Assembly (NCBI GenBank): GCA_038087875.1
Contig: CM075992.1
Coordinates: 1,180,001 to 1,244,000 of the forward strand
Length of the DNA stretch: 64,000 bases
Origin: Malacoraja senta
Taxonomy: Eukaryota
Direction: 5' to 3'
Positions 2,598 to 53,991 of this stretch are shown one piece after another; the stretch's first letter is position 1, and each line of letters opens with the position of its first letter. The notes beneath the pieces are model-generated. The model was not told the origin of the DNA and did no database searches. It saw only the letters and a list, made by a program, of their open reading frames with translations. Position numbers and translations under genes: made by a program.

Positions 2598-3190
2598 TTG
2601 TCACTTTTATGCCCTTCCGTATTCTCTCTGTCTCTCCCTCTCATGTCCATCGCTCTCTCTGTGTCACTCTCTCTCTCCCCCTTCTTATCTCAGTCCGTGC
2701 CTCTCTGTCCATCTCTGTCCACCTGCCTATCTGTCTGTCTTTCTCCCTCAAAGAACTACAGATGCTGGTGAATGCCCAACAGGACACAGAGTGCTGGAAT
2801 AACTCAGCGGGTCAGGCAGCATCCATGGAGAACATGGATAGGTTCAGTCTGAAGACCCGAAACGTCACCTATCCATGTTCTCCACAGATGCTGCCCGACC
2901 CGCTGAGTTACTCCAGCACTCTGTGAAACGTCACCTATCCATGTTCTCCACAGATGCTGCCTGACCCGCTGAGTTACTCCAGCACTCTGTGAAACGTCAC
3001 CTATCCATGTTCCGGCAGCATCTATGGAGCGAAGGAAATAGGCAACGTTTCGGCCCGAAACCCTTCCGGGTTTCGGCCCGAAACGTTGCCTATTTCCTTC
3101 AGGGTTTCGGCCCGAAAGGTTGCCCATTTCCTTCGCTCCACAGATGCTGCCTGACCCGCTGAGTTACTCCAGCACTCTGTGACTTTCTAA

Positions 3191-3608: not shown

Positions 3609-4286
3609 TTACACTGTATCTTCTCTGAGACTGATTTGCTGGTGTAGAGGGAGAGTTATTTGCTGAATTACCCAGACAGTGCTGCTTGCCCGAGGTGTGT
3701 TGAAGAGTCATCGTAGATAATCGCCAGGTAGAAACTAACTACAGATGCTGGTTTACACCAAAGATAGACAGAAAATGCTGCAGTAACTCAGCAGGTCGGG
3801 AAGCATCTCTGGAGAACATGGATAAGTTCGGTCTGAAGAAGGGCCCCGATCCAAAACGTCACCTATCCATGTTCTCCACAGATGCTGCCTGACCCGCTGA
3901 GTTACTCCAGCACTCTGTGAAACGTCACCTATCCATGTTCCGGCAGCATCTATGGAGCAAAGGAAATAGGCAACGTTTCGGCCCGAAACCCTTCCGGGTT
4001 TCGGCCCGAAACTTTGCCTATTTCCTTCAGGGTTTCAGCCCGAAAGGTTGCCCATTTCCTTCGCTCCACAGATGCTGCCTGACCCGCTGAGTTACTCCAG
4101 CTGTTCGGTTCAGTTTAGTTTAGTTTCTTGTCACGTGGACCGAGGTACAGTGAAAAGCTTTTGTTGCGTGCTAACCAGTCAGCGGAAAGACAATACATGA
4201 TTACAGTCGAGCCGTTCACAGTGTATTGATACATGATAAGGGAATCATGTTTAATGCAAGGTAAAGCCAGCAAAGTCTGATCAAAG

Positions 4287-4647: not shown

Positions 4648-5502
4648 TATATATGTGTAGACTGTATGTACACATACTGGACTTATTTTCTCGTTTACCA
4701 TATTGTTTACAGTGCATATTCTGTGGTGTTGCTGCAAGTAAGAATTTCATAGCATGACAACCCAACACTCCGGACTCTTGAATGTTAGTCCGGAACCAAC
4801 AAATATATTTAAAATGAATAAAAAGGGAAATAAGTGGCAAATAATCTTGTGGAATAGCACCACATATTCCAGGCACGCCACAGTCCTTAAGATTCAACCA
4901 CGAATTCAGCAAATTCAGCCAATCTTCTCTCCAGCTTGATTTGGTAGTGGTGGAGGGAGACATATGTTCTGATCAACCATCAGAGTGTTGGAGAGATGGT
5001 TTTAGCCGGACGAAAGTGCCTTTGATAACCCTGCCATCCCCTGCTTTGTCCAGAGGCGGTGAGATCGGTCTATTTATTGAATATCACCCGCCAGAGTTGT
5101 GAGTCTGTGTTAGTTCTCTGCCACAGAAGGCAGTGGAGGCCAATTCAATAGACAACAGGTGCAGGAGTAGGCCATTCGGCCCTTCGAGCCAGCACCACCG
5201 TTCAATGAGATCGTGGCTGATCATCCCCAATCAGTACCCCGTTCCTGCCTTCTCCCCATATCCCTTAACTCCGCTTAAATCTGTTTTCAAGAGAGAGTTA
5301 GATTTAGCTCTTAGGGCTAACGGAATCCAGGGATATGCGGAGAAAACAGGAATTGTGGGTGATCGGCCATGACCATATTGAATGGTTAACTGGCAGGGCC
5401 GAATACTCCTGCCCCTAATATCTATGTCTCTATGTTTCCGTGTGATTGTAGATGGTCATGTTTGTAGGGCCAGTGACTAATTGGTGTTCTCTTGTGGAAC
5501 AG

Positions 5503-5612
5503 GTGCAACAACCGGACGCAGTGTGTGGTGGTGGCAGGATCGGACGTGTTCCCCGACCCTTGCCCCGGGACCTACAAGTACCTGGAGATCCAGTATGAAT
5601 GCGTCCCCTACA
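5503..5612 (+). CDS. ADGRL1: Latrophilin (adhesion GPCR L1-like) internal exon, C-terminal half of RBL/SUEL lectin domain: (R)[36 protein letters not shown]
   Basis: AG acceptor at 5501-5502 and GTAAGT donor at 5613; 110 nt; peptide matches the latrophilin lectin motif [11 protein letters not shown]; phase-2 start fits the end of the 45128-45341 exon. Confidence 0.9.
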
Positions 5613-9100: not shown

Positions 9101-9128
9101 CTGAAGAAGGGTCTCGACCCGAAACGTC
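9101..9128 (+). ncRNA. Minimal hammerhead-like motif, second subfamily, inside fold-back PLE-tail element 9020-9230
   Basis: CUGAAGA-A-GGGU(CUCG)ACCC-GAAA-C-GUC; identical motif at 24201-24228 (+) and 23482-23509 (-). Confidence 0.6.
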
Positions 9129-19702: not shown

Positions 19703-19951
19703 TTGTTTGAGAAGGAACTGCAGATGCTGGAAATTCGAAGGTAGACAAAAATGCTGGAGAAACTCAGCGGGTGCAGCAGCATCTATGGAGCGAAGGAAAT
19801 AGGCAACGTTTCGGGCCGAAGCCCTTCTGGAAATAGGCAACGTTTCGGGCCGAAACCCTTCCGGGTTTCGGCCCGAAACGTTGCCTATTTCCTTCGCTCC
19901 ATAGATGCTGCTGCACCCGCTGAGTTTCTCCAGCACTTTTGTCTACCTACC
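19703..19951. mobile_element. Fold-back (palindromic) PLE-tail element with 11-bp TSD
   Basis: Inverted arms of about 75 bp; agttaaataat at 19692-19702 and 19952-19962. Confidence 0.85.
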
Positions 19952-20941: not shown

Positions 20942-21326
20942 TATCCATGTTCTCCAGAGATGCTGCATATCTGACCCGCTGAGTTACTCCAGCACTCTGT
21001 GAAACGTCACCTATCCATGTTCTCCACAGATGCTGCCTGACCCGCTGAGTTACTCCAGCACTCTGTGAAACGTCACCTATCCATGTTCTCCACAGATGCT
21101 GCCTGACCCGCTGAGTTACTCCAGCACTCTGTGAAACGTCACCTATCCATGTTCTCCACAGATGCTGCCTGACCCGCTGAGTTACTCCAGCACTCTGTGA
21201 AACGTCACCTATCCATGTTCTCCACAGAGGCTGCCTGACCCACTGAGTTACTCCAGCACTCTGTGAAACGTCACCTATCCATGTTCTCCACAGATGCTGC
21301 CTGACCCGCTGAGTTACTCCAGCACT
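20942..21326. repeat. 66-bp tandem repeat (about 6 copies) derived from the PLE tail
   Basis: gaaacgtcac recurs at 21001, 21067, 21133, 21199, 21265. Confidence 0.95.
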
Positions 21327-21523
21327 GTGACTTTTTCAGCTGTCCAAATGCACTAGTTTGGATAATCTAGGCCAATCCTTAGGATATTGAATATGACAAT
21401 CTTTGTCAACTACAAAGTCTTCATCCAGTTCTCATTGCCTTGATTTTAGGCAGGCTGAGCAGGGGTTTCTCAAACTGGTTTGCTGGATCCTGGATAGTTA
21501 AAATCCTCAATAGACACAAAATG

Positions 21524-21723
21524 NNNNNNNNNNNNNNNNNNNNNNNNNNNNNNNNNNNNNNNNNNNNNNNNNNNNNNNNNNNNNNNNNNNNNNNNNNNNN
21601 NNNNNNNNNNNNNNNNNNNNNNNNNNNNNNNNNNNNNNNNNNNNNNNNNNNNNNNNNNNNNNNNNNNNNNNNNNNNNNNNNNNNNNNNNNNNNNNNNNNN
21701 NNNNNNNNNNNNNNNNNNNNNNN
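21524..21723. other. Assembly gap (200 N)
   Basis: Run of exactly 200 N; fixed size suggests a scaffolding join. Confidence 0.99.
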
Positions 21724-23437: not shown

Positions 23438-24357
23438 TAACTCAGCGGGACAGGCAGCTTCTCTGGAGAGAAGGAATGGGTGACGTTTCGGGTCGAGATC
23501 CTTCTTCAGACTAGTCAGGGGAAAGAGAAACGAGAGATATAGACAGTACAGGAAACAGGACATGGGCGTGGGTGAGAATGGGAACCTGGTGCGACTTGGG
23601 TTGGGGGAGGGATGGAGAGAGAGGGAGTGCAGGGGTTACTGGAAGTTAGAGAAAGCAATATTTCTGTTGCTTCTCACAGCAGGTATCCTGGAATAGATTC
23701 CGTCGGGCCCTGGGGATTTGGCCACCTTAACGTATCCATCTCCTGATATCGTATCCTCCACATCCTTCTCCTGGTGAGGTATTCTGTTATGAAGCTGGAA
23801 ATTTCCCCTGGGACTACACGTTGGTTTTCCTTTTGTTCCCAACAGGGACCTATAATTTCCTTAGCTATGAAGGTAGACAAAAATGCTGGAGAAACTCAGC
23901 GGGTGAGGCAGCATCTATGGAGCGAAGGAATAGGTGATGTTTCGGGTCGAGACCCTTCTTCAGACTGATCCTTAGCTACCTTCATTCTTCTAACAAACTC
24001 ATCAAAAGGTTGTAGGATTCTCACTTACGACGGCCATTCCATATCCTCTTTTTGCTTTCCCAATTTCATTCTCTCCCACATCCCCGCTAACGGAGAGGTC
24101 TCTGGTGATACCAAATATCTGACCATTGCTTTCTTCTTATGTGTAATCAAACCTTCAATTATCTTTGTGTAGGGAGGAACTGCAGATGCTGGTCCTCGAC
24201 CTGAAGAAGGGTCTCGACCCGAAACGTCACCCATTCCTTCTCTCCTGAGACGCTGCCCGTCCCGCTGAGTTACTCCAGCATTCTGTGGCTATCTTCGATT
24301 ATCTGTGTTCACTAAGCTTCCAAAATCTTTCCAAAAATAGCCACAAAATGTTGGAAA

Positions 24358-24835: not shown

Positions 24836-25501
24836 GGGAGTAACTCACCGGGTCAGGCAGCATCTCTGGAGAACACAGCAGGTGACGTATTGGGTCAGGG
24901 CACTTCCAAACCCCAAACGTCACCCATCCATGTTCCCCACAGATGCTGCCTGACCCGCTGAGTTACTCCAGCACTCTGTGAAACGTCACCTATCCATGTT
25001 CCGGCAGCATCTATGGAGCGAAGGAAATAGGCAACGTTTCGGCCCGAAACCCTTCCGGGTTTCGGCCCGAAACGTTGCCTATTTCCTTCAGGGTTTCAGC
25101 CCGAAAGGTTGCCCATTTCCTTCGCTCCACAGATGCTGCCTGACCCGCTGAGTTACTCCAGCACTCTGTGAAACGTCACCTATCCATGTTCTCCACAGAT
25201 GCTGCCTGACCCACTGAGTTACTCCAGTTACTCTGTGTCTATCTTTAGGATAAACCAGCATCTGCAGTTCTTTGTTTCTACCTAACGAACATCTGTGAAG
25301 ACTGACAAAGCCCTTCACCACTTCTAGGGCAAACACTGCACAAGTGAGTCAGAAAAGTCGGCCGTGGAAGTTGGCTATGGGAACGGATCTGCCGGCTCCG
25401 GGCCGGGCCAGAGTTCCAGAACCCCAGCCGCAGGTGGCAAATTCCACCTGGCGATCGGCCATTGTTATCCCAATGAGTCAGAAGTTTGTCGGCTCACCTG
25501 T

Positions 25502-26706: not shown

Positions 26707-27661
26707 AACAACACACTGAGTTAGCCTCTGGATTGGAACATTCCAGGGACCCATCACCCTGTGAGCGGGGCAACAGAAAAAAAATATGTGCAGTATTTAT
26801 GTAACATATGTACAAAAATATGTAACAGAAAAAAATTAGCAGTAGGCCATTCGGCCCTTCTAGGCAGCACCGCCATTCAATATGAAGATGTTTACAGTAG
26901 GGAAGTCGGCAGCTGTTGAGCTGTGGCTGGGGAACTCTGTGGAGATTCCCTCTCTCTTTCTCTCTGGGTTGGCACAGGATCGAACACCTCAGCTCAACGC
27001 TGGGCTGTCCTCCTCGCTGTGGCAGGTGTGTGTGAGGTTCCTCAGGAGACAAGCTTCAACTCCCCCCCCCTCCCCTCCCTCTCTCTCTCTCCGTCACTCT
27101 CCGCTGCTGGGAGACTCGGTGAGTGGGCCACGAGGGGAGGGGGGGGGGGACTCTCCCCGCTGGGTTCAGCGGCAGCGTGTTGTGAAGGGAAACACCCGCG
27201 GGCTACACACACACACACACGAGGCCCACGCATCTGCCGCCCGAATGTTTTGTCTCACCTTGGTGCCGCTGAGTGCAAGGGAGGAGAAGTTTCCATTCTC
27301 AACACCAGCGTCTCAGCACGCCATCCAACACCAGCAGTAAACACACCAGGGTCAAACCCGCTCTCAACTCTACTCCAAGAGGCTGTCGCAGAATGTTCAC
27401 TAGTAATAGGAGCAGAATTAGGCCATTCGGCCCATCAAGTCTACTCCACCATTCAATCAGGGCGGTGGGCGTATGGAACGAGCTGTCGGAGGAGGTAGTT
27501 GAGGCAGGGACTAGTTCAACGTTTAAGAAACAGTTAGACAGTAAGTAAGTATTAATTAAACCTTGCTCAAGTAAGTAAGTAAGTTTATTGGCCAAGTATT
27601 CACATACAAGGAATTTGCCTTAGTGCTCTGCCCACAAGTAACAACATGACATACAGTGACA

Positions 27662-29593
27662 GATTCTAGCAGTTTCATTAGGATGGAGAGTGACATTGTT
27701 AATTCAGAAACAAGGGTCCTGAACTTAAAGAAAGGTAACTTTGAGGGTATGAGACGTGAATTGGCCAAGATAGACTGGCAATTGATTCTTAATGGGTTGA
27801 CGGTGGATATGCAATGGAAGGCATTTAAAGACTGCATGGATGAACTACAACAACAGCAAAAAAAAAAATCAGGGAAGGTAGTGCATCCGTGGATAACAAG
27901 GGAAATCAGGGATAGTATCAAAACAAAAGATGAAGCGTACAAATTAGCCAGAAAAAGCAGCCTACCAGAGGACTGGGAGAAATTCAGAGTCCAGCAGAGG
28001 AGGACAAAGGGCTTAATTAGGAAAGGGAAAATAGATTATGAAAGAAAACTGGCAGGGAACATAAAAACTGACTGCAAAAACTTTTATAGATATGTGAAGA
28101 GAAAAAGATTAGTTAAAACAAATGTAGGTCCCTTGCAGTCAGAAACAGGTGAATTGATCATGGGGAACAAGGACATGGCAGACCAATTGAATAACTACTT
28201 TGGTTCTGTCTTCACTAAGGAAGACATAAATAATCTGCTGGAAATAGCAGGGGACCGGGGGTCAAATGAGATGGAGGAACTCATCTCATTTGACCCCCGG
28301 TTAGCCAGGAAGTGGTGTTAGGTAAATTGAATGGATTAAAGGCCGATAAATCCCCAGGGCCAGACAGGCTGCATCCCAGAGTACTTAAGGAGGCAGCCCC
28401 AGAAATAGTGGATGCATTAGTGATAATTTTTCAGAACTCCTTATATTCTGGAGTAGTTCCTGAGGATTGGAGGGTAGCTAATGTAACCCCACCTTTTAAA
28501 AAGGGAGAGAGAGAGAAAACGGGGAATTACAGACCAGTTAGTCTAACATCGGTAGTGGGGAAACTGCTAGAATCAGTTATTAAAGATGGGATAGCAGCAC
28601 ATTTTGAAAATGGTGAAATCATTGGACAAAGTCAGCATGGATTTATGAAAGGTAAATCATGTCTGACGAATCTTATAGAATTTTTCGAGGATGTAACTAG
28701 TAGAGTGGATAAGGGAGAACCAGTGGATGTGTTGTATCTGGACTTTCAGAAGGCTTTCGACAAGGTCCCACATAAGAGATTAGTATACAAACTTAAAGCA
28801 CATGGTATTGGGGGTACAGTATGGATGTGGATAGAGAACTGGCTGGCAAACAGGAAGCAAAGAGTAGGAGTAAACGGGTCCTTTTCACAATGGCAGGCAG
28901 TGACTAGTGGGGTACCGCAAGGCTCAGTGCTGGGACCCCAGCTATTTACGATATATATTAATGATTTGGACGAGAGAATTGAATGCAACATCTCCAAGTT
29001 TGCAGATGACACGAAGCTGGGGGGCAGTGTTAGCTGTGAGGAGGATGCTAGGAGGCTGCAAGGTGACTTGGATAGGCTGGGTGAGTGGGCAAATGCAGGG
29101 CAAATGCATGGCAGATGCAGTATAATGTGGATAAATGTGAGGTTATCCACTTTGGTGGCAAAAACAGGAAAGTAGACTATTATCTGAATGGTGGCCGATT
29201 AGGAAAAGGGGAGATGCAACGAGACCTGGGTGTCATGGTACACCAGTCATTGAAAGTAGGCATGCAGGTGCAGCAGGCAGAGAAGAAAGCGAATGGTATG
29301 TTGGCCTTCATAGCAAAAGGATTTGAGTATAGGAGCAGGGAGGTTCTACTGCAGTTGTACAGGGTCTTGGTGAGACCACACCTGGAGTATTGCGTACAGT
29401 TTTGGTCTCCTAATCTGAGGAAAGACATTCTTGCCATAGAGGGAGTGCAGAGAAGGTTCACCAGACTGATTCCTGGGATGTCAGGACTTTCATATGAAGA
29501 AAGACTGGATAGACTCGGCTTATTCTCGCTAGAATTTAGAAGATTGAGGGGGGATCTTATAGAAACGTATTTTCTATGTTTCTATGTTTCTAT
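27662..29593 (+). mobile_element. CR1/HER1-type LINE, 5'-truncated ORF2 with RT domain, frameshifted pseudogene
   Basis: [53 protein letters not shown]; 11-bp duplication near 29088-29110; (TTTCTATG)n tail; interrupts another repeat whose intact form is at 18885-19040. Confidence 0.93.
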
Positions 29594-29876
29594 GACAGTT
29601 ACGAATGACTCAGAAAACACTAAACATTAATAATAATAAAACATTAATGATAAAACACCATCGATCAAGCAGGTGAACCAACAAAATACCAGATCAAAGG
29701 GAGGCTACAGATATTTGGCTGGTACATGGTACAGGTATATGGATAGGACATGTTTAGAGGGATACGGGCCAAACGCAGGCAGGTGGGACTAGTGTCTTAT
29801 CCATGTACCTGTTTCTTAAACGTTGGGATAGTCCCGGCCTCAACTACCTCCTCCGGCAGCTCGTTCCATACACCTA

Positions 29877-33571: not shown

Positions 33572-33833
33572 GTGTAGGAAAGAACTGCAGGTGCTGGTTT
33601 AAACCGAAGGTAGACACAAAATGCTGGAGTAACTCAGCGGGACAGGCAGCATCTCTGGAGAGAAGGAATGGGTGACGTTTTGGGTCGAGACCCTTCTTCA
33701 GACTGATGACGTTTCGGGTCGAGGCCCTTCTTCAGACTGATTCAGTCTGAAGAAGGGACTCGACCCGAAACGTCACGCATTCCTTATCTCCAGAGATGCT
33801 GCCTGTCCCGCTGAGTTACTCCAGCATTTTGTG
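33572..33833. mobile_element. Fold-back PLE-tail element (second subfamily) with hammerhead motifs on both strands
   Basis: Minus motifs at 33674-33701 (GAAA mutated) and 33708-33735; plus motif at 33747-33774; long inverted arms. Confidence 0.8.
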
Positions 33834-35349
33834 CCTACTGTATCATAAGGGAATAACGTTTAGTGCAAGGTAAAGCCAGCAAAGTCCGGTCAAGGATAGT
33901 CCGAGGGTCACCAATGAGGTAGATAGTAGTTCAGCACTGCTCTCTAGTTGTGGTAGGATGGTTCAGTTGCCTGATAACAGCTGGGAAGAAACTGTCCCTG
34001 AATCTGGAGGTGTGTGTTTTCACACTTCTGTACCTTTTGCCCGATGTATAGAATACTCCGAAGATAGACACAAAATACATAGAAACATAGAAAATAGGTG
34101 CAGGAGGAGGCCATTCGGCCCTTCGAGCCAGCACCGCCATTCATTGTGATCATGGCTGATCGTCCCCAATCAATAACCCGTGCCTGCCTTCTCCCCATAT
34201 CCCTTGATTCCACTAGCCCCTAGAGCTCTATCTAACTCTCTCTTAAATCCATCCAGTGACTTGGCCTCCACTGCCCTCTGTGGCAGGGAATTCCACAAAT
34301 TCACACAACTCTCTGGGTGGAAACGTTTTTTTCTCACCTCAGTCTTAAATGACCTCCCCTTTATTCTAAGACTGTGGGTGAGGCAGCATCTTCGGAGGGA
34401 AGGAATGGGAGGCGTTTCGGGTCGAGACCCTTCCCCAGACAAGAGAGAGGGTGAGGTGTGAAAAGGACAGATCAAAGCAGATGGTGATCAAGGAAACGTA
34501 CAATGTTTAATTGTTGGCTGAGGGGAAGGTGACAATGAGGTATATAATCAGTAATATTTATTCAGGAGTCCCATATCTGTCCTATCCATGTACCTGTCCA
34601 ATTGTCTTTTAAACGTTGGGATAGTCCCAGCCTCAACTACCTCCTCCAGCAGCTCGTTCCATACACCCACCACCCCTTGAGAGAAAAAGCTACCCCTCAG
34701 ATTCCTATTGAATCTTTTCCCCTTCATCTCAAACATATGTCTTTTGGTTTTTGATTCACAACGTTTAAGAAACATTTAGATAGGACAGGGTTTAGAGCGA
34801 TACGGGCAGGTGGGACTAGTGTAGCTGGGACATGTTGGGCGGTGTGGGCAAGTTGGGCCGAAGGGCCTGTTTCCACGCTGTATCACTCTCCGACCTGCCC
34901 CCCGCCGCCCCCTCCTTATTCCCCTGCAACCTTGGAGCTTGTTCTTTCTCACAGGGAGAGAACTTCCTCCTCTGCCCCCTCACGACCCGCATTCTCCTGT
35001 CCTTCCTCCTACCCCTCCATTCATTCTGCCCCCCCCTCTCCTCCTCTCCCCACCCCTCCTTCATTCCACCCCTCCCCCTTCCTTGTCTCTTCTCTCCCCT
35101 CATTCTACTATTCCTCCTTTGCTGCCCACCACTTCTCCATTCTCCCCCCCCCTCCTGACTCTGCCATCGTTACTGTTCCTCCTCCCCCAATCTTCCCCAG
35201 GCCCCTTGCCCCTTGCACCTGCTAATCCACGGCCCTGTCCAGATGCTCCTCGCTTCTGTAAACGGCTAAAGGGCCTGTCCCACTTTCACAACCTAATTCA
35301 CCACCTCTGCCGAGTTTGCCCTTGACTCATACTCGCAGCATGGTCGTCA

Positions 35350-36466: not shown

Positions 36467-37743
36467 TTCCTTTTTCTCCAGAGATGCTGCCTGTCCCGCT
36501 GAGTTACTCCAGCTATAGTGTCTACGTTGAAAGAAACATTAAAATGGAGCCGGCAGATGTACCGAGTGAGAACTAATTCAGTGCGTGTCAGATTTGATCT
36601 GAAGCTGAGCTGAAGAGATTTTCTCTGCTCACCTTGAGAAGGAGAACAGCAAGCCCCGGGAATGATTTGAATTGAGATAATCATCTGTGCTCGGGGAAGC
36701 TGCGACTTAACATCATTAGGTGACATTAAAAAAATGCTCTTCTGCAGGTGCCGCGAAAAGGCCATTGCTCAGGGGGATTCGAGGCATTGTTATCACTGAA
36801 TGTGCCCTAGGCTGCATTAAGCGTAGAACAAGGAGATCAGCAGCAAATTAAAGAGTCTTGTTAATGTGGATGTTAAAAAAAATCACGGTCAAAGAGTGCG
36901 CTGATGACACTTCCCGTTGCGTGCTGCTGCCGTACTGGGTGACATTATTAAAATTATCTTTCCGGTTTCACCGCTGGTTTCTCCCCTCTCGCCCACGTCA
37001 CCTCCACCGACCGGGTTGCGCGGTGAATCTGCGGAAACCGTTGCCACGGAGGGCAGCGCAGTCCAAATCAACGGATATTTGTAAAAGCCGGAGGATGTTT
37101 CCACTAGTGGGAGAGTCTAGAACTAGAGGCCACAGCCTCAGAATTAAAGGGCGTTCCTTTCAGGAAGGAGATGAGGAGGGATTTCTTTAGTCGGAGGGTG
37201 GTGAATCTGTGGAATCCTTTGCCACAGAAGGCTGTGGAGGACAAGTCAGTGGATATATTTAAGGCGGAGATAGATAGATTCTTGATCAGTACGGGTGTCA
37301 GGGGTTATGGGGAGAAGAATGGGGTTGGGAGGGAGAGCTAGATCGGCCATGATTGAACGTCGGAGTAGACTTGATGGGCCGAATGGCCTAATTCCATCCC
37401 TCATCACTTGGTCCTTTCTGCCATGATTCCAACACACCTCACATCTTGCTTGGGAGGCTCACAACCCAACTGTATGAATCTTGATTTCTCTAATGCTAAG
37501 TATCCCCTGCATTCCCCCTCTCTCTCCGTCCCTGCCCCTCTCTAGTCATCCTGCCAGTTCCACTATTCGCATCCGTATATCCTTTCGTCGTCACCTCCTG
37601 CGAGTGCCCGCGGAGCTTGTCGGCCGGCGTGGACTCAGTAAGCCGAATAGCCTGTTTTCCTGCTGTATCTCTAGAGCCTCTGCCTCAGCAGGCTGTGGAG
37701 GCCAAGTCAGTGGATATTATTAAGGTGAAGATAGATAGATTCT

Positions 37744-37884
37744 GATCATCAGTCTGAAGAAGGGTTTCGGCCCGAAACGTTGCCTATTTCCTTCGCTCCA
37801 TAGATGCTGCTGCACCCGCTGAGTTTCTCCAGCATTTTTGTCTACCTTCGATTTTCCAGCATCTGCAGTTCCTTCTTAAACACC
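37744..37884 (+). mobile_element. About 140-bp hammerhead plus PLE-tail insertion with 13-bp TSD, nested in a CR1 tail
   Basis: atagatagattct at 37731-37743 and 37885-37897; motif at 37754-37781. Confidence 0.85.
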
Positions 37885-44824: not shown

Positions 44825-45024
44825 NNNNNNNNNNNNNNNNNNNNNNNNNNNNNNNNNNNNNNNNNNNNNNNNNNNNNNNNNNNNNNNNNNNNNNNNNNNN
44901 NNNNNNNNNNNNNNNNNNNNNNNNNNNNNNNNNNNNNNNNNNNNNNNNNNNNNNNNNNNNNNNNNNNNNNNNNNNNNNNNNNNNNNNNNNNNNNNNNNNN
45001 NNNNNNNNNNNNNNNNNNNNNNNN
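44825..45024. other. Assembly gap (200 N)
   Basis: Run of exactly 200 N; left edge is inside a young CR1 copy. Confidence 0.99.
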
Positions 45025-45127
45025 GTCCCCACCGGACTCTGCCCCTCAATGTCCCTGGGCCGTGGTCCTCCCCCCACAGAGCCTTGGCGTTGGCTGCAAA
45101 GTACACGAACGGGCAGGAGGGTCCTAC

Positions 45128-45341
45128 CTTTGTGACATGATCTTGAAGGTTTCGGGAAGGAAACACTCGACGTTCTCCATCTGGAAGAGGTCCGCGTCAC
45201 AGATCTTGTTGTCAGTCCGTCCGTAGTTGGCGCTCTCGATCATGATGACGTCGCTGCCTGGACAGCGCAGCTCGATGGGGTAGCCTTCGCACGCTAGCTC
45301 CCTCCGCATCAGACCGAAGGGCAGGGCCGCCCGGCTCAGAC
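45128..45341 (-). CDS. ADGRL1: Latrophilin (ADGRL1-like) internal exon, N-terminal half of lectin domain: [71 protein letters not shown](R)
   Basis: Minus-strand tgcag|GT acceptor and AAG|gtagga donor; 214 nt; [20 protein letters not shown] resembles ADGRL1 more than ADGRL2/3 (from memory). Confidence 0.9.
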
Positions 45342-45656
45342 CTGCACGCAAATACACAGCACACAAATTCAGTTGTTACCTTCTCCCAGCTAACAATGAT
45401 CTATTCCACACTTCCCTCGGATCACCACCCCCTTTGTTCCGGTTTCACACCTCGCACTTCCTTATCTATGTATCTCCGCGCTCCACAGATGCACAGGTTT
45501 GTAGGTTAATTGCCTTCGGTGAAATTATAAATTGTCCCTAGTGTGTGGGATAGTTTTAGTGCTGGGCGGACTCGGTGGGCCGAAGGGCCTGTTTCCGCGC
45601 TGTATCTCTAAACAAAACTGAAAAGTTGGCCGAAGATTGGTACAAGATAGTCGGCA

Positions 45657-46040: not shown

Positions 46041-46860
46041 AGATGAGTCTCGACCCGAAACGTCACCCGTTCCTTCTCTCCGGAGATGCTGCCTGTCCCG
46101 CTGAGTTACTCCAGCGTTTTGTATCTATCTTCAGACACACATTGAGTTCAGTTCAGTTTAGTTCCTTGTGACAGTGAAAAGCATTTTTTTTCTCGCGTCA
46201 GCGGAAAGACAATACATGATTGTAATCGACCCTCGGGGGGGGGGGGGGCACCTTGGAACACCAGCCCTCCCCTTCCTACGCCCCCCAGGAAAGGAAGTGT
46301 TGGAGCAGGAAGGAACTGCAGATGTTGGTCTACACCGATGATAGACACAAAATGCTGGAGTAACTCAGCGGGACAGGCAGCATCTCCGGAGAGAAGGAAT
46401 GGGTGACGTTTCAGGCCGAGTCCCTTCTTCAAGCTGTCTTAGAACATATAACATCGGAACAGTCTTTCGTCTCAGCGTCTAAGGAAAGTTATTCTTCCTC
46501 TGGACGGAACACTATAAGACCACAGGCAATGGGATCAGAATTAGGCCATTCGGCCCATGGAGTCTGCCCCGCCATTTAATCATGGCTGCCCTACCTTTCC
46601 CTCTCAACCCTATTCTCTAGACTTCTCCCCGTAAACTTTGACACTGTACCTTGGTTTATTAGTGTCATGTGTACTGAGGTGCAGCAAAAAGCTTTTGTTT
46701 GTTGCGTGCTATCCAGTCGGCGACAAGACAAGACGTGATTACAATGAAGCCGTCCACAGTGCACAGATACAAGATGGGGGGAATAATGTTCGATGCAAGA
46801 TAAAGTCCATTAAAATCCCATTAAAGATAGTGCGAGGGTTACTAATCAAGAACCTATCTA

Positions 46861-49185
46861 AGGTACACAAAAATGCTGGAGAAACTCAGCGGGTGCAGCA
46901 GCATCTATGGAGCGAAGGAAATAGGTAACGTTTCGGGCCGAAACCCTTCTTCAGACTGATAGGGGGTGGGGAGAAGAAAGGAAAAAAGGAAAAGGCGGAG
47001 GAGGAGCCCGAGGGCTGGGGGAGGGAGGAGACAACCAGATGGCTGATGAAGGGGAGGGGACAGCCAGGGCTAGCAGAATTGGGAGAATTCAACGTTCAGG
47101 CCACCAGGATGTAGACTGCCCAAGCGGAATATGAGGTGCATTTCCTCCAATTTACGATGTTGCTCGCTGTGGCCATGGAGGAGACCCAGGACAGAGAGGT
47201 CAGATACGGAATGGGAGGGGGAGTTGAAGTGCTGAGCCACCGGGAGTTCAGGTTGGTTATTGCGGACCGACCGGAGGTGTTCGGCGAAACGATCGCCAAG
47301 CCTCCGCTTGGTCTCACCGATGTAGATCAGCTGGCATCTAGAGCAGCGAATGCAATAGATGAGGTTGGAGGAGATGCAGGTGAACCTCTGTCGCACCTGG
47401 AACGACTGCTTGGGTCCTGGAATGGAGTGGAGGGGGGAAGTGAAGGGACAAGTGTTGCATCTCTTGCGGTTGCAAGGGAAAGTACCAGGGGAGGTGGTGG
47501 TATGGGAGGGAAGGGAAGAATTGACAAGGGAGTTACGGAGGGAGCGGTCTTTGCGGAAGGCAGACATAGGGGGAGATGGGAAGATGTGGCGAGTGGTGGG
47601 GTCACGTTGGAGGTGGCGGAACTGACGGAGGATCACTTGTTGTATGTGACGGCTGGTGGGGTGAAAGGTGAGGACTAGGGGGACTCTGCCTTTGTTGTGA
47701 GTGGGGGGATGGGGAGAGAGAGCAGTGTTGCGGGGTATGGCAGAGACCCTGGTGCGAGCCTCATCTATGGTGGAGGAGGGGAACCCCTGTTCCCTGAAGA
47801 ATGAGGACATTTCAGATGCCCTGGTGTGGAACGCCTCATCCTGGGAGCAGATGCGGCGTAGACGGAGGAATTGGGAGTGGGGGATGGAGTCCTTACAGGA
47901 AGCAGGGTGGGAAGAAGTGTAGTCCAGATAGCCATGGGAGTCGGTAGGTTTGTAGTGGATGTCGGTAAGGAGTCTATCACCTGCGATGGAGATAGTGAGG
48001 TCAAGGAATGGTAGGGAAGTGTCGGAAATGGTCCAGGTGTATTTGAGTGCCGGATGGAAGTTGGTGGTGAAGCGGATGAAGTCAGTCAGTTGTGTGTGGG
48101 TGCAGGATGTGGCACCAAAACAGTCATCGATGTAGCGGAGGTAGAGGTCGGGGATGGGGCCCTGGTACGCATTGAACAGGGATTGTTCTACGTACCCGAC
48201 AAAGAGGCAGGCGTAGCTGGGGCCCATGCGTGTGCCCATAGCTACGCCTTGTATTTGGAGGAAATGGGAGGAGTCAAATGAAAAGTTATTGAGTGTAAGT
48301 ACCAGCTCCGCTATGCGGAGGAGGGTGTCAGTGGCCGGGTATAGATTGCTTCTACGGTCGAGGAAAAAACGGAGGGCTTTGAGACCATCCTGGTGGGGGA
48401 TGGAGGTGTACAGTGACTGGACGTCCATGGTGAAGATGAGGGGGTGAGGGCCTAGAGAGTGGAATGCGCGGAGATGACGGAGAGTGTCTGAGGTGTCTTG
48501 AACATAGGTGGGGAGGGATTTAACCAAGGGGGATAGTATGGAGTCGAGGTAGGTGGAGATGAGTTCGGTGGGGCACGAACAGGCAGAGACAATGGGTCTA
48601 CCGGGACAGTCAGGTTGTGGATTTTGGGGAGAAGGTAAAAGCGGGCTGTGCGGGGCTGGGGAACGATGAGGTTGGAGGCTCGTTCGGGCAGGGCGTGGGA
48701 GTGGATGAAGTTGGTGATGGTGCTGGAGATGGTGGCCTGGTGCTCGTCAGTGGGGTCATGGTCCAGGGGTAAGTAGGAAGAGGTGTCCGAGAGTTGGCGC
48801 GTGGCCTCAGCTTTGTAGAGGTCGACGCGCCAGACTACCACGGCACCTCCCTTGTCGGCGGTTTGATAACCCAATCTAGGTTGTTGCGGAGTGAGTCGAT
48901 GGCAGTGCGTTCAAGGGGGGAGAGATTGGAGTGAGACAGGGGAGTGGAGAAGTTAAGGCGGCTGATGTCACGGCGGCAGTTTTTAATAAAGAGTTCTAAA
49001 GCTGGAAGGCTGCGAGGGGGGTTCCATGAGGATGGGGTGCGTTGGAGACGGGAAAAGGGGTCATCAGTGGGGAGCGAGGACTGCTTCCCATGGAAGTGAG
49101 CTGTGAGGCGGAGGCGACGGTAGAAGCGTTCCAAGTCATGGAGGGCACGGAACTCATTGAGATGGGGACGGAGGGGGACAAAGGT
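46861..49185 (-). mobile_element. Penelope-like retroelement (Neptune-type), 5'-truncated, with frameshifts near 48860 and 48610; RT plus GIY-YIG endonuclease
   Basis: ORFs 48835-49134, 48452-48874 and 47070-48527 contain ADKGGAVVVW, MDVQSLYTSI, GVAMGTRMGPSYA, YLRYIDD, Cys linker CNRKRCNTC and LIYCIRC..YIGET; flanked by acctatcta direct repeat (46852-46860, 49189-49197). Confidence 0.92.
46927..46954 (-). ncRNA. Minimal type I hammerhead ribozyme-like motif in the PLE 3' terminus
   Basis: Sense strand reads CUGAAGA-A-GGGU(UUCG)GCCC-GAAA-C-GUU; core boxes intact, stem III reduced to palindromic ACGU. Confidence 0.65.
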
Positions 49186-50007
49186 AAGACCTATCTATCT
49201 ATCTATCTATCTCCGCTTTTAAAACCTATCTATCTCCGCTTTTAAAATAAGCAATGACTTGGCCTCCACCTCCATTCCACAGATTCGCCACCCTCGGGCT
49301 AAAGAAATTCCTCCTCCTCTCCATTCTGATTTTATTCTGAGGCTGTGACCTCTGGTTCTAGGCTCTCCAACTAGTGGGAACATCCTCTCCACGTCCACTC
49401 AATCCAAGCCTTTCACCACCCCCCCATCCTTCTAAACTTCAGCCGAGGCCTAGTGCCGCCAAACTCTCCTGACACGTTAACTCCCTGGGATCATTCTCCT
49501 AATTCTCCCCTGGACCCTCTCCAAAGCCGGCACATCCTTGCTCGGATATGGGGGGGCTCAAAAACTGCTCAGAATATTCCAAAAAAGTGGCCCCACTAAC
49601 GCCGGAATACCAAAGGAATTGGATGACGAGGAAAGCACAGCATGGACAGGAGGAATAAGGGACTTTGGCATTTCATCCAAAACCACGGACACCAGACTCC
49701 AAAGAACAACGGATTCATAACTCAGAGCACAGCCTTGAAGGAAGAATAAAAATAAAATTAAAACTAACCTATGGAAGCAATATTTCAACGAGAGAGCGGT
49801 GAGTCTGTGGAAGTTGTTCCCCAGCCAGCTGTTAGCAATGATTCATTCAAATATTTATTAGATTAAATTCTCCCGGAAAATAATATTTTAGTTTCTGTTA
49901 TGTGTGAGACAGTGTGGAGATTGGTTGGGGAGAACTAGGGGACATTGGAGTTAAGCAGATATTCCAACAAACACATTGGTGATCAAAGACAGACACAAAA
50001 TGCTGGA

Positions 50008-51185: not shown

Positions 51186-51476
51186 AGGTAGACAGAGGTC
51201 TTCCTCACACATGGAAGATGGGCCCCAGACCGATCCCAAATCAACCTGTTTAAAGCAATAGAAGCCTGAATATTGGGACCTGAAGCCCAGTTGAGCCTGG
51301 CCATGGTCAGAGTGAGGCCCAACGCAAATTGGAGGAACAGCACTTCATACAGTATTTCGCTTGGGAAGCTTCCACCCCACTGATATGAACATTCAAGTAA
51401 CCTTTGCTTTCCCTCTCTCTCCATCCCTCCCCCATCACAGTTCTACGACCGGTCTGACTGTCCCCTGATTACGTTT

Positions 51477-52675
51477 TAGACAATAGACAACAGGTGCAGG
51501 AGTAGGCCATTCGTCCCTTCGAGCCAGCACCGCCATTCAATGTGATCATGGCTGATCATCCCCAATCAGTACCCCGTTCCTGCCTTCTCCCCATATCCCC
51601 TGACTCCGCTATCTTTAAGAGCCCTATCTAGCTCTCTCTTGAAAGCATCCAGAGAACCTGCCTCCACCGCCCTCTGAGGCAGAGAATTCCACAGACTCAC
51701 AACTCTCTGTGAGGAAAAGTGTTTCCTCGTCTCCGTTCTAAATGGCTTACCCCTTATTCTTAAACTGTGTGGCCCCTGGTTCTGGACTCCCCCCAACATC
51801 GGGAACATGTTTCCTGCCTCTAGCGTGTCCAAGCCCTTCATAATCTTAAGGGCATGTCGCACTTTCACGACGTAATTCACAACCTCTGCCGAGTTTGCCC
51901 TTGACTCATACTCGCAGCATGGTCGTCATGAGGTCGGAGGAGGTGTAGGAGGTCGTAGGTAGGTCGTAGCAGGCCGTGATGCTAGTCGTAGGTACTCGTG
52001 GCATCAAGTAGGTCGAGGCGATTTTCTAGCCTGATGAAAAATGTCCACGAGTAAAAAGGTGGTGAATTAGGTCGTGAAAGTGAGACAGGCCCTTTATATG
52101 TTTCAATGAGATCCCCTCTCATCTTTCTAAACTCCAGAGTGTACAAGCCCAGCCGCTCCATTCTCTCAGCATATGACAGTCCCGCCATCCCGGGAATTAA
52201 CCTTGTAAACCTACGCTGCGCTCCCTCAATAGCAAGAATGCCCTTCCTCAAATTAGGGGACCAAAACTGCACACAATACTCCAGGTGTGGTCTCACTAGG
52301 GCTCTGTACAACTGCAGAAGGACCTCTTTGCTCCTATATTCGATTCCTCTTGTTATAAAGGCCAACATGCCATTCGCTTTCTTCACTGCCTGCTGTACCT
52401 GCATGCTTACTTTCATAGACTGACGTACAAGGACCCCCAGATCCCGTTGTACTTCCCCTTTTCCCAACTTGACGGCATTTAGACAGTAATCTGCCTTCCT
52501 GTTTTTGCTACCAAAGTGGATAACCTCACATTTATCCGCATTAAACTTCACCTGCCATGCATCTGCCCGCTCCCCCAACCTGTCCAAGTCCCCCTGCATT
52601 CTCATAGCATCCTCCTCACATTTCACACTGCCACCCAGCTTTGTGTCATCTGCAAATTTGCTAATGTAACTTTGA
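51477..52675 (-). mobile_element. CR1 fragment interrupted by a MITE at 51849-52093
   Basis: [21 protein letters not shown]; resumes across a TTA duplication. Confidence 0.9.
51849..52093. mobile_element. PIF/Harbinger-type MITE with perfect TTA TSD
   Basis: TTA at 51846-51848 and 52094-52096 reconstitutes CR1 aatcTTAtatgtttc. Confidence 0.85.
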
Positions 52676-53991
52676 TGTAGAACGCTGAAAAGCTCTTGGT
52701 ATAGCATCACCCAGCACTATGATGTTGGTGGACGTGCTAGTCGAGGTGGAGATGCATCTTTGTGTGTGTTGATGTTTTTCGGAGATCTCTGATGCTGGCT
52801 GGTTAGGTAGGGTGTTCCAACCCTTGCTGTCGTGAAGAAACACGAGTTAGAAAGTGCTAATGAAGTGCCGTGCGGAATGAAATAATTTCCAGGTTGGTAG
52901 TTGACGAACACTCTCTTGGACGTCTAGAGATATGCAGCAAAGAGCAGATTGACTGGTTGCATCAAGGCCTGGTTCATCTCCTTGAACTCCCAGGAACGAA
53001 GAAGATTGAAATAATAAGTGGTAAACACTTCCCAGTCGACCACGGGTACTGAGCTCCCCACCATCAAAGGGGTCTACAAGAGATGCCACCATCAAAAAAG
53101 CAGCCAGCATCATCACCATAGACCCACCCCACCCTGGCCACGCTCTCATTTCACTCCTGTCATTGGGAAGTTTTTTCGGAGCCTGAAAATTGTACATTTT
53201 CGACACCCTAGGGACAAGTTTGAAACCTACACACTGGGGACAATTTGCAGAAGCCAATTATCCTACTAAAAGATTCTTCCAAGTAGACAAAAAATGCTGG
53301 AGAAACTAATCGAGAAACTCATCAGACTGAAGAATGGTTTCGTCCCGAAACGTTGCCTATTTCCTTCGCTCCATAGATGCTGCCGCACCCGCTGAGTTTC
53401 CCCAGCAATTTTGTCTACCCCCTCTCTCATCGAGTGAGGCAGCATCAATGGAGAGATGGAGAAGGGGTGGGTGACGTTTTGGGTCGAGACCCTTCTTGAG
53501 ACTTCAAGCTTCACACCATCTGTGCCTCTCATAATTCCATATATGTCGATCAAATCTCCCCTCAGCCTCGGTATTTAAAAAGTGCGTCTTTGTTCCCAAT
53601 ATTCGTCCCCCTCCATCGCTGAGCACAAGTGTTTTCACTCAGTCTTTTTCTATAGAACGATTGCAAAAGCTCCTAAAATAATTCAGTCTATGTGTATCGC
53701 TTCGGGAGTTTTCTGAGAGGTGAGATATAAGCAGACAGACGGATGATAAGACGGTGGGTTGAACAAAGGAGGCACGATCTTGCTCTGCCAAATGCCCATT
53801 CAGGAGGTGAAGAAAAAAATCCGCCAATGTGTAATAGCAATTCAGCCGCTGGTTCATCTTTTGTCTCTCACTGACAACAGGCCTGTCAGAATCAGACGCT
53901 GAGATTCAGCTCTGAGCCCTGCCGCTCCCAATGGTCCCCAGGACCGAGAGTTCAACCCTAGATCACAACCACCTCCTCAGTGTTACACCAC

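Follow-up and report, generated by a model that had tools for sequence, protein, structure and literature searches.

A 64,000-nucleotide stretch of the genome of the skate Malacoraja senta (assembly GCA_038087875.1, contig CM075992.1, positions 1,180,001 to 1,244,000; hereafter the window, to which all coordinates refer) carries on its minus strand the remnant of a Penelope-like element (PLE) with a hammerhead-like motif behind its coding region. The 5'-truncated open reading frame (ORF; 47070..49191), identified by domain and homology searches, encodes a reverse transcriptase (RT), a CX4CXXC linker, and a GIY-YIG endonuclease. It is followed by a pyrimidine-rich 3' untranslated region (UTR; 46957..47069), which forms the upstream part of the pseudo-long terminal repeat (pLTR) of a subfamily here called A, by the motif itself (46927-46954), and by a pLTR tail (46860..46924). 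Comparison of copies places the end of this tail about 94 nt past C3, the first position of the hammerhead core, from which offsets (+/-) are counted throughout; other copies extend about 30 nt further, and this extension is the known PLE 'tail'. The motif is probably a dimer-dependent, assisted type I hammerhead in the pLTR of a Neptune-type PLE whose insertion likely proceeds from uncut RNA.

The coding remnant is truncated at its 5' end near 49200, is disrupted by two changes of frame, one near 48850 and one near 48630, and stays open for 558 codons between 47070 and 48746. Neither the RT nor the GIY-YIG domain reaches its curated Pfam cut-off (scores of 26.5 against 29.6 and of 20.4 against 22.6), and the best named homologs, from sharks and rays, are 63-69% identical. 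The linker reads CNRKRCNTC in the ORF protein, and C425, C430, and C433 are invariant in an alignment of homologs (A1). Members of the Neptune clade likewise have a C-terminal GIY-YIG domain and a CX2-5CXXC linker, and their DKG motif is present in the homologs of the skate ORF and in the matching segment at 48859 (Craig et al., 2021; PMC8557442). A pLTR with an inverted, 5'-truncated partner and a one-sided tail is also common to the clade as described there and to the skate family, and the skate copy abuts a GATA repeat. These features point to a Neptune-type PLE, an assignment based on shared traits, of which the linker also occurs in Nematis. A further, indirect link to Neptune is provided by the hammerhead motif of the Acropora digitifera Neptune element (PMC4209133, Fig. 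S3), which is near-identical to those of two relatives of the skate element (L054 and L037). The genomic copy at 46927-46954 is itself dead, being truncated, frameshifted, and devoid of a 5' pLTR.

On the minus strand, 46954..46927 reads CUGAAGA-A-GGGU-UUCG-GCCC-GAAA-C-GUU and begins 115 nt past the stop codon, which ends at 47070; both the sequence and the gap agree with a preliminary description made from the letters of the window. The 5' strand of stem I (G2.2, U2.1; 46955..46956), placed by pairing in relatives and by a covariance model match, is followed by the core box CUGAAGA (C3-A9) with an extra A ahead of stem II (46947..46954), by stem II itself (GGGU/GCCC with a UUCG loop, or GGGU/ACCC with a CUCG loop in a second subfamily, B; 46935..46946), and by the GAAA box with the palindrome ACGU (A15.1-C-G-U16.1; 46928..46934). 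H17 (U) and the 3' strand of stem I occupy 46925..46927, and hammerhead numbering predicts the cut between 46927 and 46926; reads and copies vary between U and C at H17 and between A and G at 1.1. By its letters, the palindrome cannot close stem III intramolecularly and would instead pair with that of another copy. Stem I consists of 2 bp (U-A or U-G, then G-C) followed by an A.C mismatch in all three tabulated window copies.

The core boxes CUGANGA, GAAA, and UH stand in type I order, in the pLTR of an element with RT and GIY-YIG domains, as in other PLE hammerheads. Across 20 distinct motifs, comprising three window copies and 17 from relatives, the extra A between A9 and 10.1 is present in 20/20, G10.1-C11.1 is G-C in 19/20, and 15.2:16.2 is complementary in 19/20 (ACGU here). 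A 2-bp stem I falls within the class, most relatives having 3-5 bp with double changes. Judged on these traits, the motif belongs with the minimal type I hammerheads of PLEs, as had been claimed: the core, the extra A, G10.1-C11.1, and ACGU match the published consensus, and stems I and II covary in relatives. The same architecture and position, together with a dimer model, were reported for fish (Xena, Poseidon, Neptune) and coral PLEs (Cervera & de la Pena 2014; PMC4209133). As characterized in that work, the published minimal hammerheads and the skate motif have in common the type I order, CUGANGAH, an extra base before stem II, G10.1-C11.1, no loop III, a palindromic 15.2/16.2, a U-rich upstream region, a pLTR location after RT and endonuclease, widespread solo copies, and opposite-strand pairs. 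With 2 bp in stem I and 4 bp in stem II, the skate motif lies at the small end of the published range.

The fold itself is supported by comparison with relatives. Ninety loci encode related proteins, mostly at about 45-55% identity, and in 37 of them the end of the ORF is present together with sufficient sequence beyond it. A descriptor, one of the checks suggested beforehand, found a sense-strand hammerhead downstream of the ORF in 16/37 loci, 14 of the minimal type at +83..+208 after the ORF and two canonical-like at about +380, with no antisense match and none in 740 shuffles. By eye, six of the 21 misses have the first box in a CCGA form, and about five look decayed. When motifs were anchored on the core only (matches in 20/37 loci), pairs 1-3 of stem I were paired in 54/60 cells, compared with 20-23/60 when slid, and showed A-U/U-A and C-G/G-C swaps; among the 17 distinct motifs from relatives, positions one and two are both paired in 15 and position three in 16. 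In an alignment (A2) of 20 motifs taken from relatives only, with the window left out, 94.2% of cells were paired (58.9% shuffled, 22-43% slid), and six of seven pairs changed on both sides, including three of the four in stem II. A covariance model built from A2 only (R1) ranked 46919-46962 first in the window, at 39.4 bits and an E of roughly 7e-8. Both stem I and stem II show covariation among relatives, and the evidence for the fold, thin within the window, is decisive from this deep comparison.

Several relatives show peculiarities of their own. Six coral-type loci (L018, L064, L081, L083 at position 2062, L084, and L085) have CCGACGA for CUGACGA (U4C) in an otherwise intact motif, and the canonical-like hammerheads, about 380 nt past the ORF in the more distant relatives L059 and L077, combine a long stem I with an extended palindromic stem III. 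L002, a full-length relative, retains two direct-repeat pLTR copies with motifs 3066 nt apart; its frame is open through the 5' hammerhead (L002:1028-1062), and its first in-frame ATG spans the predicted cut (GUA^UG), so that cleavage would destroy this codon, if it is a real start. Loci L081-L087 and L091-L112 belong to a genome labelled as bacterial that holds many animal PLE copies, which indicates a bin contaminated with host DNA.

Sequence related to the pLTR is abundant in the window, amounting to 71 BLAST fragments at 38 loci and 5305 bp, or about 8% of its length. The pattern CTGANGA-N13-GAAA occurs 15 times, compared with 0.26 +/- 0.48 expected, and none of 100 shuffles reached 15; these matches are copies of one repeat, and their number shows repetition and says nothing about function. 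The strict full pattern including stem I is found in only three window copies (32826, 37754, and 46954). Subfamily B had been placed at 9101, 24201, and 23482. Its motif is exact at the first two, both of which start at C3 and so are missing stem I's 5' strand, whereas the copy at 23482-23509 has GGAU instead of GGGU and hence a stem II mismatch. Stem I had been described as weak, at 2-3 bp in most copies; the tabulated copies have 2 bp followed by the A.C mismatch. One subfamily B copy (23438..23662, minus strand) keeps its own UTR and the end of an endonuclease ORF (NIAFSNFQ-stop, a C-terminus likeness judged by eye) 126 nt before C3, which ties subfamily B to a PLE ORF. The subfamilies differ in the motif at a loop base, 11.4 (G/A), H17 (U/C), and 1.1 (G/A), all tolerated positions; these differences spare all 11 core positions and keep the pairs, and the same four positions account for the motif variants among the rows listed for reads and contigs of related organisms. 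The change in stem II within the window is one-sided (U-G/U-A). A tail hairpin, AGAUGCUG/CAGCAUUU, was considered and rejected, with one double change (9101), several broken pairs, and fold z-scores of about -0.65 to 0.08.

Most fragments are short, and their ends are informative to within the few bases of accuracy of BLAST ends. After removal of one non-tail match and of a copy at the window edge, and with shared junctions collapsed, 51 distinct 5' junctions remained: 4 at -10 or beyond, 23 at -9..+1, 12 at +2..+19, 2 at +20..+25, and 10 beyond +30. None falls at -60..-10, and none at +26..+30, around the predicted cut between +27 and +28. Of the 23, the one at 34382-34443 probably represents a third subfamily and a copy that extends further. 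The upstream flanks of short copies match neither UTR reference. Duplications of at least 7 bp flank 11 of the 38 loci (4.6% background; two of the 11 look fortuitous), including four solo copies and three head-to-head pairs, which identifies the short copies as primary insertions. By BLAST and flank comparison, a solo 100-bp copy on the minus strand (23870..23969) spans -6..+94 within a 10-bp target-site duplication. Pattern and flank comparison delimit another solo copy, on the plus strand (37748..37848), that also begins at -6 and has a complete motif, the tail extension, and a 13-bp duplication, and a head-to-head pair of short copies (33602..33837), recognized by BLAST and its flanks, has a 9-bp duplication and the extension on one arm only. 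On the 3' side the copies stop at about +84..+99; some of them, usually one arm of a head-to-head pair, continue for about 30 nt more. Reads are consistent with the 5' boundary. In 9063 raw reads from a fragmented polyA library of another, related organism (X24), depth is about 3500 at 46950-59 and 370 at 46960-69, and loose ends that agree poorly lie behind 46956 and 46960; the drop is partly due to the different UTR of subfamily B. The copies of about 100 bp are likely run-offs from the 5' end of an RNA, made from uncut RNA.

Sequence around the boundary is compatible with a transcription start. TCAGT closes the subfamily A UTR, with its A at -3, and resembles the initiator consensus; subfamily B has TATAT at -32 and subfamily A no TATA box. 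The idea that every relative has a TATA box at a constant distance was rejected: one occurs at -37..-39 only in one large family and in L002, and 9/23 relative motifs have no TATA-like word within 70 nt. In a coral-type family from one contaminated bin, diverged members share a CCAAT box and, at -39/-37, a TATA box. Textbook TATA spacing would put the start of this family near -8. Among its 28 copies, 11 reach the 5' edge of their locus, one stops at -223, and 16 stop at -16..+10, a pile-up about 30 nt below the conserved TATA box that resembles the skate pile-up, although the search pattern covered +5..+33 and starts at the cut site were therefore undetectable; the 3' ends cluster at +92..+98 and +143..+155. 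Promoters internal to pLTRs have been published (PMC3846280, PMC2377424, PMC6765202). In Drosophila virilis, transcription is reported to start 125 nt before C3, so the spacing between start and core is not universal.

For cleavage, pairing, protein help, and the RNA start, we propose the following scheme. Transcription would likely start just before the core of the upstream pLTR of an intact tandem, in which two pLTR copies about 3 kb apart, arranged as in L002, could act as partners. In the default RNA fold the core would be held in a competing hairpin with the downstream CCUUC, leaving the ribozyme mostly off, and cleavage after GUH would occur only when two copies pair through ACGU, probably slowly and with the help of protein. 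The protein would bind the tail, and reverse transcription would begin at one of two internal sites (+94 or about +125), as for the Anolis element discussed below. Starting in the 3' pLTR it would yield long 5'-truncated copies such as 46860-49200; starting in the 5' pLTR it would likely run off a few bases before the core after about 100 nt, giving solo and head-to-head copies. On either route the template would span an uncut hammerhead. Since no copy begins at the cut site, the hammerhead would not make the insertion template; cleavage would cut about 30 nt from the RNA start, which would suit an off switch better than template maturation. It is plausible, if short of probable, that solo and head-to-head copies map RNA ends, their 3' ends marking RT starts and their 5' ends the transcription start, and that the hammerhead is a protein-triggered, cap-removing off switch on the mRNA.

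The pile-up of short copies could instead reflect an RT pause or end-joining hot spot at the motif edge, or the ends of masters resembling short interspersed elements, rather than a transcription start, an explanation that we find somewhat doubtful yet take seriously. The junctions spread across 11 nt with 12 more at +2..+19, some recur in 3-4 loci so that composite masters exist, and the absence of a TATA box from subfamily A and of TATA-like words from 9/23 relative motifs would fit, as would a YAG after a pyrimidine tract at -4..-2, a possible splice acceptor. The same boundary is nevertheless seen in subfamilies with unrelated upstream UTRs and unique flanks, the coral-type boundary keeps its distance from a conserved TATA box, and a hairpin would be expected to stall RT at its 3' arm, not once unwound. 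The YAG occurs in both subfamilies (46957-47000 and 23510-23545, minus strand); as a splice acceptor it could account for the conserved A that breaks the third stem I pair, and an intron of the D. virilis PLE ends at helix I (PMC4209133). As the main cause of the 5' boundary a splice acceptor was rejected, because short copies have no common upstream exon.

A number of results weigh against a working hammerhead. Rfam gave no hammerhead match to the motif, either at the gathering threshold or at E<=10. Rfam hammerhead models expect a genuine stem III, and the missing match therefore says nothing about the minimal class. The preliminary contrast between a kept motif and diverged flanks applies only upstream, in the UTR; motif and 3' tail have diverged to a similar degree, representative A and B copies differing at 10/56 tail and 4/26 motif positions. 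The core likewise showed no significant excess of conservation over flanks, the refuting condition named beforehand, among 24 near-full window copies, either in private changes (7/261 in the core vs 55/1265 in the tail, p=0.30) or in shared-variant columns (1/11 vs 19/74, p=0.45). Inserted copies decay without selection, however, so no core excess is expected in dead copies, and the hammerhead reading is not refuted. Nearly all relative motifs pair at the third stem I position and the skate motif stops at 2 bp, which puts the skate family at the weak end. The rows of A2 were chosen partly with a pairing-aware pattern and its counts are inflated, the core-only anchoring being the cleaner test. 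For five window copies, predicted energies put the active dimer 4.7-16.7 kcal/mol higher than two separately folded monomers (1.1-18.5 kcal/mol in 11 relatives). The purine-rich core is predicted to pair with the CCUUC immediately downstream, and stem II barely forms in the predicted fold of subfamily A, where the probability of G10.1-C11.1 is 0.00-0.04 in three copies vs 0.57-1.00 in short-flank relatives; z-scores of the motif fold are about 0. X24, a weak test, showed no pile-up of read ends or dip in depth at the cut site. Finally, one of nine Xenopus retrozyme dimers was reported to be cleaved in vitro (bioRxiv 10.64898/2026.07.22.740005).

It is conceivable on these grounds, though unlikely, that a PLE-derived hammerhead has become catalytically dead in the skate lineage, its bases being kept as promoter, initiator, or protein-binding elements of the pLTR. 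The 2-bp stem I with its conserved A.C mismatch, the competing hairpin and unfavourable active fold, a conservation of the motif no better than that of the tail, and a cut site free of copy starts and read ends all agree with such a loss, as does the occurrence of copies near host exons about equally often on both strands. A strand-bias test for depletion of cleavable copies in the host gene (ADGRL1) is confounded by two exons that lie on opposite strands across assembly gaps; in the two outer contigs, R1 matches at E<=0.01 number, by hand count, seven sense and nine antisense, which gives no signal at low power. Against a dead motif, the four subfamily differences all spare the 11 core positions and keep the pairs, motifs with a 2-bp stem I are included in the published set (Culex, Drosophila, Oikopleura; PMC4209133), and some relatives with 3-4 bp stems score equally badly in the energy test. 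The dimer-dependent hammerhead favoured here likely cuts weakly at best and needs both a partner copy and a protein. What has been published on other PLE motifs agrees with this: a schistosome minimal motif is reported as inactive as a monomer and of low activity as a dimer (PMC4209133), and the Anolis PLE hammerhead as cleaving only with protein and as dispensable for insertion in vitro, where uncut RNA is the dominant substrate (PMC11167929).

An efficient, protein-free dimeric ribozyme that frees unit-length or circular RNA as the insertion template, as envisaged in the preliminary description and in the 2014 model (PMC4209133), is very unlikely. The core and palindrome are intact and L002 shows the direct-repeat arrangement that it would use; yet cutting in the 5' pLTR would give copies from +28, where 0/51 junctions fall at +26..+30, a religated circle has no boundary at -6..+1, the published minimal motifs are described as weakly active in vitro (PMC4209133), and the Anolis element mainly uses uncut RNA (PMC11167929). 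A chance likeness to a hammerhead, multiplied by copy number, could appeal to the missing Rfam match and to a shuffle test that shows repetition only, but is effectively refuted by the core-anchored pairing of stem I and the R1 ranking: across elements whose proteins share only about 45-55% identity, the motif keeps its position, its core does not vary, and changes in its stems compensate each other.

The closest experimental counterpart is Poseidon PAc of Anolis carolinensis (Frangieh et al., 2024; PMC11167929), which also has a hammerhead in its pLTR. As reported, PAc has two internal RT start sites and an optional tail of 30-40 nt, comparable to the skate 3' ends at about +94 and +125; it cuts both strands, which fits the skate head-to-head pairs, and as in the skate family no RNA-seq ends lie at the cut site. 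PAc belongs to another clade, the skate element having a Cys linker, and its ORF begins at stem II, whereas the start of the skate ORF is absent from the window; its cleavage has been assayed, that of the skate motif being predicted. Non-LTR retrozymes (PMC7229834; bioRxiv 10.64898/2026.07.22.740005) resemble the skate copies as short, non-coding, pLTR-derived units with a type I hammerhead, and both are likely mobilised by PLEs. Retrozymes are described as head-to-tail arrays with a ribozyme in each unit; the skate copies, being solo or head-to-head, are not retrozymes in that sense. The sole skate tandem array (20951-21332) repeats head to tail a 66-bp unit that runs from the GAAA box on and, unlike retrozymes, has no CUGANGA box or stem II; it is a ribozyme-less pLTR minisatellite of a third subfamily.

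Other features of the window concern copy structure and the host locus. Composites of pLTR pieces from two subfamilies, in direct and inverted orientation, occur at 2785-3190, 3761-4101, and 24837-25245 with 98-99% identity over about 250 bp, and their junction recurs at 19861 and 57513; the composite could represent a non-autonomous master. Two insertions (46850-46860 with 49200-49230, and 37730-37870) fall within a GATA-repeat tract that belongs to a different repeat family, in line with the microsatellite bias published for Neptune elements (PMC8557442). The PLE lies 1.5 kb upstream of, and on the same strand as, a host exon for the lectin domain of ADGRL1 (latrophilin-1; 45127..45342, minus strand), which is 100% identical to an Amblyraja radiata protein of that name. 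The consecutive ADGRL1 exons at 5501-5611 (plus) and 45127-45342 (minus) are on opposite strands with N gaps between them (21524-21723 and 44825-45024), probably because a contig is mis-oriented in the assembly. An endonuclease C-terminal fragment of another PLE subfamily (51302-51440, plus) has no hammerhead behind it, and two further RT-bearing fragments of long interspersed elements lie at 27650-29630 (plus) and 51982-52716 (minus).

The class of motif is already known from fish and many other animals, and skates are added to its list of hosts; if anything here is new, it is the pattern of junctions. Cartilaginous fish are absent from the 56 motifs listed in PMC4209133, and the junction pile-up was not found in the accessible text of that paper. 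An exact search for the motif in a genome contig collection gave 0 matches, and a literature search that excluded most subscription journals and Repbase found no publication on skate PLE hammerheads or on junctions piling up at the motif. The role of PLE hammerheads has been called unclear (PMC8557442). With pLTR fragments filling about 8% of the window, skate genomes likely hold very many dated insertion junctions. Their statistics could show whether cut or uncut RNA was inserted in vivo and where transcription starts, extending a single in vitro result from Anolis. If the hammerhead is indeed an off switch, a census of skate and coral junctions would be an in vivo test of what PLE hammerheads do.

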